This document shows, piece after piece, positions 52,116-52,529 of a stretch of 64,000 nucleotides of DNA. The position numbers were made by a program, and so were the translations under genes. The stretch lies in the NCBI RefSeq assembly GCF_054482525.1, contig NZ_CM137006.1; one strand, given 5' to 3'. The notes under the pieces were generated by a model, which had not been told where the DNA came from, did not search any database, and saw only the letters and a program-made list of their open reading frames with translations. Numbering within the stretch: position 1 is the stretch's first letter; every line of letters begins with the position of its first letter.

Positions 52116-52454
52116 ATGTAAATTATCAATAAAAGGCGTTATTTCATTATTATTTATAATGAGTTATGAGTATTTATTTTATTACGGTTGGTAGGAATAT
52201 ACAAAAAGTATTTTTTCAGTTGGTTCGCTATTTTAAAAAGGAATTCATATAAGAAATAAAAAATAAGTATGTTATTTATTGGTAGATTGAATTGACAGGG
52301 TGCAGAAATCTGAGGGTAAGAAAAATCAGCAACAACAATTCACTACATCAACAGACCAGCAATCGAGTGCCGCGATACGCTGGAAATACCCGCAGATTGA
52401 ACTGGCGGGTGGTGTGACTGGCATCAGTCAGTGATGACTTTTTAGCAAACTATG

Positions 52455-52488
52455 TTCGACCAGTCAGCATATTTACTGACTGGTCGAA
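52455..52488. repeat. Perfect 13-bp inverted repeat in the yfbL-elaD spacer
   Basis: TTCGACCAGTCAG-CATATTTA-CTGACTGGTCGAA; lies 42 nt downstream of the elaD stop on the minus strand, followed there by only a weak U-containing tract. Confidence 0.55.
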
Positions 52489-52529
52489 TTAATTGACAAT
52501 GATGTTAACTTACTCTTTTTCCTGATGCT

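Follow-up and report, generated by a model that had tools for sequence, protein, structure and literature searches.

The 414-bp spacer that separates yfbL from elaD in the window (the whole 64-kb stretch of DNA analysed here) consists of the eroded remains of yfbK together with the yfbL/yfbK promoter region and the 70-bp elaD/yfbK intergenic region, and the inverted repeat in this last part is best read as a hairpin in the 3' flank of elaD that most likely acts in RNA; we put the probability of this combined reading at about 0.8. An RNA 3'-end role for elaD is the most likely one for the hairpin in view of its position, strength and conservation. What appears to be an “empty spacer” with a palindrome is a pseudogene relic beside a conserved 3' hairpin, which in itself matters little: both are ordinary kinds of feature, and the roughly 50:50 polymorphism of yfbK is the only thread of even mild interest.

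The spacer extends from the yfbL start to the stop of the elaD open reading frame of the window (52116-52529) and is indeed AT-rich, as first noticed from the letters alone, with a GC content of 33.8% compared with 52.1% for the whole window. The sequence-only reading had also stated that K-12 carries yfbK between yfbL and elaD and that the gene is missing here, and both the K-12 annotation and our alignment bear this out. The annotated order in K-12 MG1655 is rbn, elaD, yfbK (1728 bp, on the opposite strand) and yfbL, and the minus-strand order in the window is rbn (53917-54852), elaD (52530-53729), yfbL (51144-52115) and yfbM (50538-51041). Positions 51600-53000 are 100% identical to E. coli PCN033 (NZ_CP006632.1). 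The right-hand edge of the spacer is set by this strain's elaD, an ElaD/SseL deubiquitinase gene that occupies 52505-53729 on the minus strand by ORF and PGAP annotation and is frameshifted by an A5 to A6 homopolymer change (six A's on the minus strand, plus coordinates 52533-52538), so that its reading frame ends at 52530 and not at 52505; PGAP flags it as a frameshifted pseudogene. Since the stop codon of other strains corresponds to 52505, the ancestral spacer measures 389 bp. The extra A may stem from a sequencing error, or the gene product may truly be slightly truncated at its C terminus.

Alignment to K-12 accounts for the spacer piece by piece. On its left, yfbL (an M28 metallopeptidase gene; 51144-52115, minus strand) is intact by ORF and PGAP annotation and is followed by the divergent yfbL/yfbK intergenic, or promoter, region, which has been kept at 66-75% identity (52116-52248; the K-12 equivalent is 137 bp long) and which showed no consensus sigma-70 site in a promoter scan of 51900-52800. 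Then come three collinear, in-frame fragments of yfbK on the plus strand, about 186 bp in all: a 5' relic of 126 nt (52249-52374) that corresponds to nucleotides 1-132 of the K-12 gene, a 21-nt island (52375-52395; ATACGCTGGAAATACCCGCAG) that corresponds to nucleotides 1456-1476, or codons 486-492 (IRWKYPQ), and a 3' relic of 39 nt (52396-52434) made up of the last 12 codons and the stop (IELAGGVTGISQ*). The rest of the ancestral spacer (52435-52504) is the 70-bp region that, by alignment and the K-12 annotation, lies between the convergent elaD and yfbK genes of K-12. Over longer stretches, identity to K-12 is 77% for yfbL plus the first 132 nt of yfbK (51975-52374) and 94% for the last 40 nt of yfbK, the intergenic region and elaD (52395-53000). 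In the 5' relic, the start codon has changed from ATG to ATA, two in-frame stops have arisen and five nucleotides have been deleted at the lipobox, such that the remnant combines collinear homology with lost coding capacity, as expected of a pseudogene relic. The 44-aa ORF at 52300-52434 on the plus strand, annotated by PGAP as hypothetical protein WP_001328566.1, was considered as a real small gene and rejected, given that its GTG start reads GGG in strain B and that it follows the yfbK frame; the “hypothetical protein” is a piece of the relic and not a gene.

The island, in which 20 of 21 bases are as in K-12 yfbK and which is also matched by the yfbK genes of E. whittamii, E. albertii and MOD1-EC7003, lies between the first deletion on its left and two adjoining deletions (165 + 48 bp) on its right, with junctions at 52374/52375 and 52395/52396. 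Deletion 1 removed nucleotides 133-1455 of yfbK (1323 bp) and is common to PCN033 and WL297; deletion 2 removed nucleotides 1477-1641 (165 bp), is flanked by a GCAGG direct repeat and is also found in WL297; deletion 3 removed nucleotides 1642-1689 (48 bp) and is seen in PCN033 and strain B, the segment being kept in WL297. Because WL297 thus preserves an intermediate state that lacks the 48-bp deletion, the loss of yfbK ran through three deletions. Microhomology at the junctions amounts to 1-5 nt at most, with little or none for deletions 1 and 3. All three lengths are multiples of three, for which the chance is about 1 in 27 and which may be coincidence; the three in-frame deletions would have come first, with point decay setting in afterwards. 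The remnant resembles other eroded pseudogene relics of enterobacteria in that both gene ends and an internal island survive as collinear fragments, in its lost start codon and internal stops, and in an intermediate allele (WL297) that still segregates, but it differs from them in that all its deletions are multiples of three and in that the deleted and intact states each account for about 47-48% of genomes and are mixed across phylogroups. Loss of yfbK has also occurred independently, by a different single deletion in SCPM-O-B-8794 (in an elaD-less background), by a larger deletion that took elaD, the hairpin and yfbK in DETEC-E1005, and by IS insertions in further lineages.

The inverted repeat consists of the arms TTCGACCAGTCAG (52455-52467) and CTGACTGGTCGAA (52476-52488) around an 8-nt loop, and the 13-bp pairing noticed earlier at 52455-52488 proved to be perfect. 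It is the longest perfect hairpin-type repeat of the 64-kb window, and none of 300 shuffles of the spacer gave one beyond 10 bp. Predicted folding energies of the RNA are -27.1 kcal/mol on the minus strand (z -7.1) and -23.6 kcal/mol on the plus strand (z -5.4), and 7 of the 13 pairs are G-C, which makes this a stable G+C-containing stem-loop. We annotate it as a putative elaD mRNA 3'-end structure on the minus strand, lying 16 nt past the ancestral elaD stop (52505) and, read in the other direction, 20 nt past the yfbK stop (52434). Other long perfect hairpin-type repeats occur in the window at 4958-4992, 22792-22818 and 33351-33377, with stems of 11-12 bp, and these are probably terminators.

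The distribution of the repeat follows elaD and not the state of yfbK. Its stems are identical in K-12, where yfbK is present, and in strain B, where it has been lost, and the same stems recur in five further strains of different identity classes in which the loop and the flanks alone vary. Among 5426 complete E. coli genomes, the elaD 3' part was found in 4209, the 71-bp region of the hairpin in 4201 and the yfbK interior in 2540; a 101-bp probe across the junction matched contiguously in 2582 genomes (yfbK deleted, with the mosaic junction) and matched the yfbK 3' end alone in about 1620 (yfbK intact). That the repeat is found in 4201 genomes against 4209 for elaD, in both states of yfbK, indicates that the hairpin travels with elaD, and its occurrence in yfbK-intact and yfbK-deleted genomes alike is the very outcome that the sequence-only reading had itself named as refuting its proposed link with yfbK. 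There is one repeat locus per genome, since the second “place” recovered by a search arises because the palindrome also matches its own reverse complement (31/34 positions in K-12), and the repeat arm is likewise single within the 64-kb window.

The elaD gene is not universal, and comparison with strains that lack it places the hairpin within the elaD segment. elaD is missing from E. whittamii, E. albertii, Escherichia E1V33, MOD1-EC7003 and about 22% of E. coli; yfbL, yfbK and rbn occur without it in E. whittamii, E. albertii, E1V33, MOD1-EC7003, Superficieibacter and E. coli VTB96937v, and in elaD-less E. coli and the outgroup species yfbK is directly convergent with rbn. In VTB96937v, yfbK ends in ...GLAKDLDNSQN* and is followed by a different hairpin, and the same arrangement (a different yfbK tail, then a different hairpin) was read 3' of yfbK in all five elaD-less genomes inspected there, namely E. 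coli VTB96937v, SCPM-O-B-8794, E. whittamii, Escherichia sp. E1V33 and MOD1-EC7003, with E. albertii as the exception. It follows from this comparison that the elaD segment has taken the place of the terminal ~5 codons of rbn and the terminal 9 codons of yfbK and brings its own yfbK tail (including the small palindrome discussed below) as well as the hairpin. The different hairpin of the elaD-less strains lies at the equivalent place and has the core GCCTGATA...TATCCGGC, which is REP-like by eye only. We also note that the yfbK-rbn intergenic hairpin of all elaD-less relatives but E. albertii has the core TGCCGGATA...TATTCGGCA, here too REP-like by eye only. A search of one-genome-per-species contigs with ElaD gave no match, the E. 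coli representative genome among them presumably being elaD-less, and a search of the same contigs with K-12 YfbK gave six loci. The prevalence of elaD found here (78%) agrees with the published 66.6% of 530 strains, mainly of phylogroups B1, A, E and D (PMC12575377).

Sequence variation in the stem speaks for a function in RNA. Stem invariance in mainstream E. coli could reflect recent common ancestry alone. Two stem pairs have changed on both sides in WL297 and in the probable homologue from E. albertii, one from A-U to G-C and the other from C-G to A-U, and across the alignment, which holds six distinct sequences only, 92% of cells are paired, compared with 3-39% after sliding of the partner columns. 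For E. albertii, homology of the hairpin is no more than probable, with 22/34 matching positions and an 11-nt exact core. The remaining defects, moreover, differ between the strands. In WL297, which has kept elaD and lost yfbK, the single stem defect is C·A in the yfbK sense and G·U in the elaD sense, so that 12 pairs in a row remain on the elaD-sense strand (-20.5 kcal/mol). In E. albertii, where elaD is absent, it is in the yfbK sense that the hairpin stays G·U-intact (-22.2), the opposite sense being weaker (-14.2). Such strand-asymmetric defects favour an RNA structure, formed on the strand that happens to be transcribed, over a DNA site.

If the hairpin works in RNA, one possibility is a canonical Rho-independent terminator that works in both directions and efficiently ends transcription of elaD as well as yfbK. 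The hairpin is strong and symmetric, lies at the centre of the 70-bp convergent intergenic region and has short A/T-rich flanks, with AAACTATG before the stem and TTAATTG after it. However, the U-tract expected 3' of the stem is missing on both strands, where the tails read CAUAGUUUGC (elaD sense) and UUAAUUGACA (yfbK sense), and the hairpin was not called by a terminator scan with a threshold of at least 5 T in 8; because there is no U-tract, it is not a canonical intrinsic terminator. The bidirectional intrinsic terminators between convergent genes that were reportedly described by Ju et al. in 2019 using SEnd-seq also have one symmetric hairpin centred between convergent stops (those of elaD and yfbK in K-12), but the elaD hairpin is without the flanking pair of A-tract and U-tract, and the window has only one of the convergent genes left, so that the elaD side alone can matter here. 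Nor does the hairpin behave like REP/BIME elements, with which it shares the position of an extragenic palindrome in the 3' UTR between convergent genes: it occurs in one copy per genome, does not resemble the REP consensus and is replaced at the equivalent place by another hairpin in elaD-less strains, and it has neither the many copies nor the shared consensus of a dispersed repeat family. A search of Rfam at a permissive threshold gave chance hits only (E >= 1.2, far under gathering scores).

Nor do published transcript ends in K-12 directly support an efficient intrinsic terminator. Adams et al. 2021 recorded a region of Rho termination at K-12 2383800(+), inside the elaD 3' part and about 140 nt upstream of the hairpin (in K-12 only), such that many K-12 transcripts may end before reaching the hairpin. 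Their curated Term-seq table holds no elaD or yfbK 3' end and none at K-12 2383920-2383999, where the hairpin lies, which may reflect low expression of the two genes, and the TERMITe supplements have no entry for elaD or yfbK. Taken together, efficient canonical termination of both genes is an unlikely, though by no means negligible, account of the hairpin. Of the three options put forward by the sequence-only reading, which were an elaD terminator, a protein-binding site and a recombination scar, the terminator-like hairpin at the elaD 3' end is nevertheless the best supported, except that the missing U-tract sets it apart from the canonical kind.

An elaD 3'-end hairpin that is not a canonical terminator can be compared with the stable 3' stem-loops of Rho-dependent transcripts described by Dar & Sorek 2018, NAR (PMC6061677). 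The elaD hairpin is alike in being stable, in lying just past the stop codon without a U-rich tail, which is what characterizes these protective 3' stem-loops, and in belonging to a transcription unit for which Adams et al. 2021 recorded Rho termination. It is unlike them in that the recorded Rho region lies upstream of the hairpin, whereas their model places it downstream, and in having no mapped steady-state 3' end. In the reading preferred here, elaD transcripts would most likely carry a stable stem-loop at their 3' end, and in yfbK-intact strains the hairpin would serve the yfbK transcript too, on the other strand. With no U-tract on either strand, the hairpin would either be a weak, non-canonical terminator or, once Rho has ended transcription, hold back 3'-5' exonucleases. 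Where yfbK has been deleted, elaD and yfbL now lie next to each other in the same orientation, with the hairpin as their sole separator; there it would limit read-through into yfbL, and read-through could couple the expression of the two genes.

A function of the repeat in DNA, either as a dyad site for a dimeric regulator or as the leftover end of the segment that imported elaD, is in our view very improbable. In favor of such a function, the dyad is without mismatch, the elaD-associated segment has its right-hand boundary ~47 bp away, the GACCA/TGGTC motifs are like half-sites of the GntR/FadR type, and a gSELEX peak of LldR has been described on yfbK (PMC10272880). This lead to a binding protein was, however, abandoned, as the peak lies hundreds of bp from the repeat and both the spacing and the orientation of the half-sites are unlike the LldR box AAnTGGTCnGACCAnTT. 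The repeat is also single in each genome, with no second copy at the other (rbn) end of the elaD segment, and an exact search of viral contigs returned 0 matches; the strand-asymmetric G·U versus C·A defects, which follow the transcribed strand, argue against a DNA element in general. Finally, a recombination scar or site of yfbK gain or loss is virtually precluded, for although the repeat sits in the spacer that replaces yfbK and has a CAGTCAG core in common with a small palindrome nearby, it does not coincide with the junctions (52374/75 and 52395/96), the nearest of which is 60 bp away outside the 70-bp intergenic part, their scant microhomology is unrelated to it, and the same stems are present in K-12 with its intact yfbK and in some 1620 yfbK-positive as well as some 2582 yfbK-deleted genomes, where a scar would be absent from the intact allele.

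The small palindrome itself, TGACTG-GCAT-CAGTCA at 52415-52430, is present as described in the sequence-only reading but carries little weight: it lies inside the yfbK 3' relic, where it merely spells the last codons of the gene (VTGISQ*), its fold z-scores of -1.3 and -0.65 are at chance level, and by our own arithmetic about 0.6 stems of 6 bp are expected in 414 bp. The CAGTCAG 7-mer is found 23 times in the whole window against 7.8 expected, and because it is thus three times over-represented, the shared core is weak evidence for a repeated motif and was down-weighted.

The polymorphism of yfbK is linked to a hypervariable block. The intact and deleted states, each at about 47-48% of complete E. 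coli genomes, are mixed within phylogroups, as exemplified by K-12 and BL21 (A) and by O103 and O104:H4 (B1). The yfbK deletion is linked to a block of 340 bp (52037-52374) that comprises the yfbL signal-peptide codons, the divergent promoter and the yfbK 5' relic and that is 66-75% identical to K-12, as opposed to 95-100% in its flanks. Its left edge at ~52037 is sharp, with 95-100% identity to K-12 up to 52036 and 75% from 52037 on, so that the first ~26 codons of yfbL (52037-52115) belong to it, and E. coli harbors at least 4 deeply divergent alleles of the block that are mutually 67-78% identical. The near 50:50 states, the divergent linked block, the repeated losses of yfbK and the in-frame deletions would be consistent with an exported vWA lipoprotein being under balancing or diversifying selection, for example via phage or host interaction; that the presence or absence of yfbK is an old, selectively maintained polymorphism and not a trivial loss is nonetheless doubtful, and we rate it as improbable.

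Changes in the neighborhood extend beyond yfbK. In the strain of the window, nuoN nearly adjoins yfbM, and ~728 bp (49809-50536) stand in place of the yfbN-yfbO-yfbP region of K-12 (2387439-2389999, 2561 bp). Strain B (NEBExpress; locus positions 3630-4262) carries an ISEcB1 element between nuoN and yfbM, and its yfbL is itself annotated as a frameshifted pseudogene; in the strain B lineage, the entire yfbK-yfbL neighborhood is decaying.
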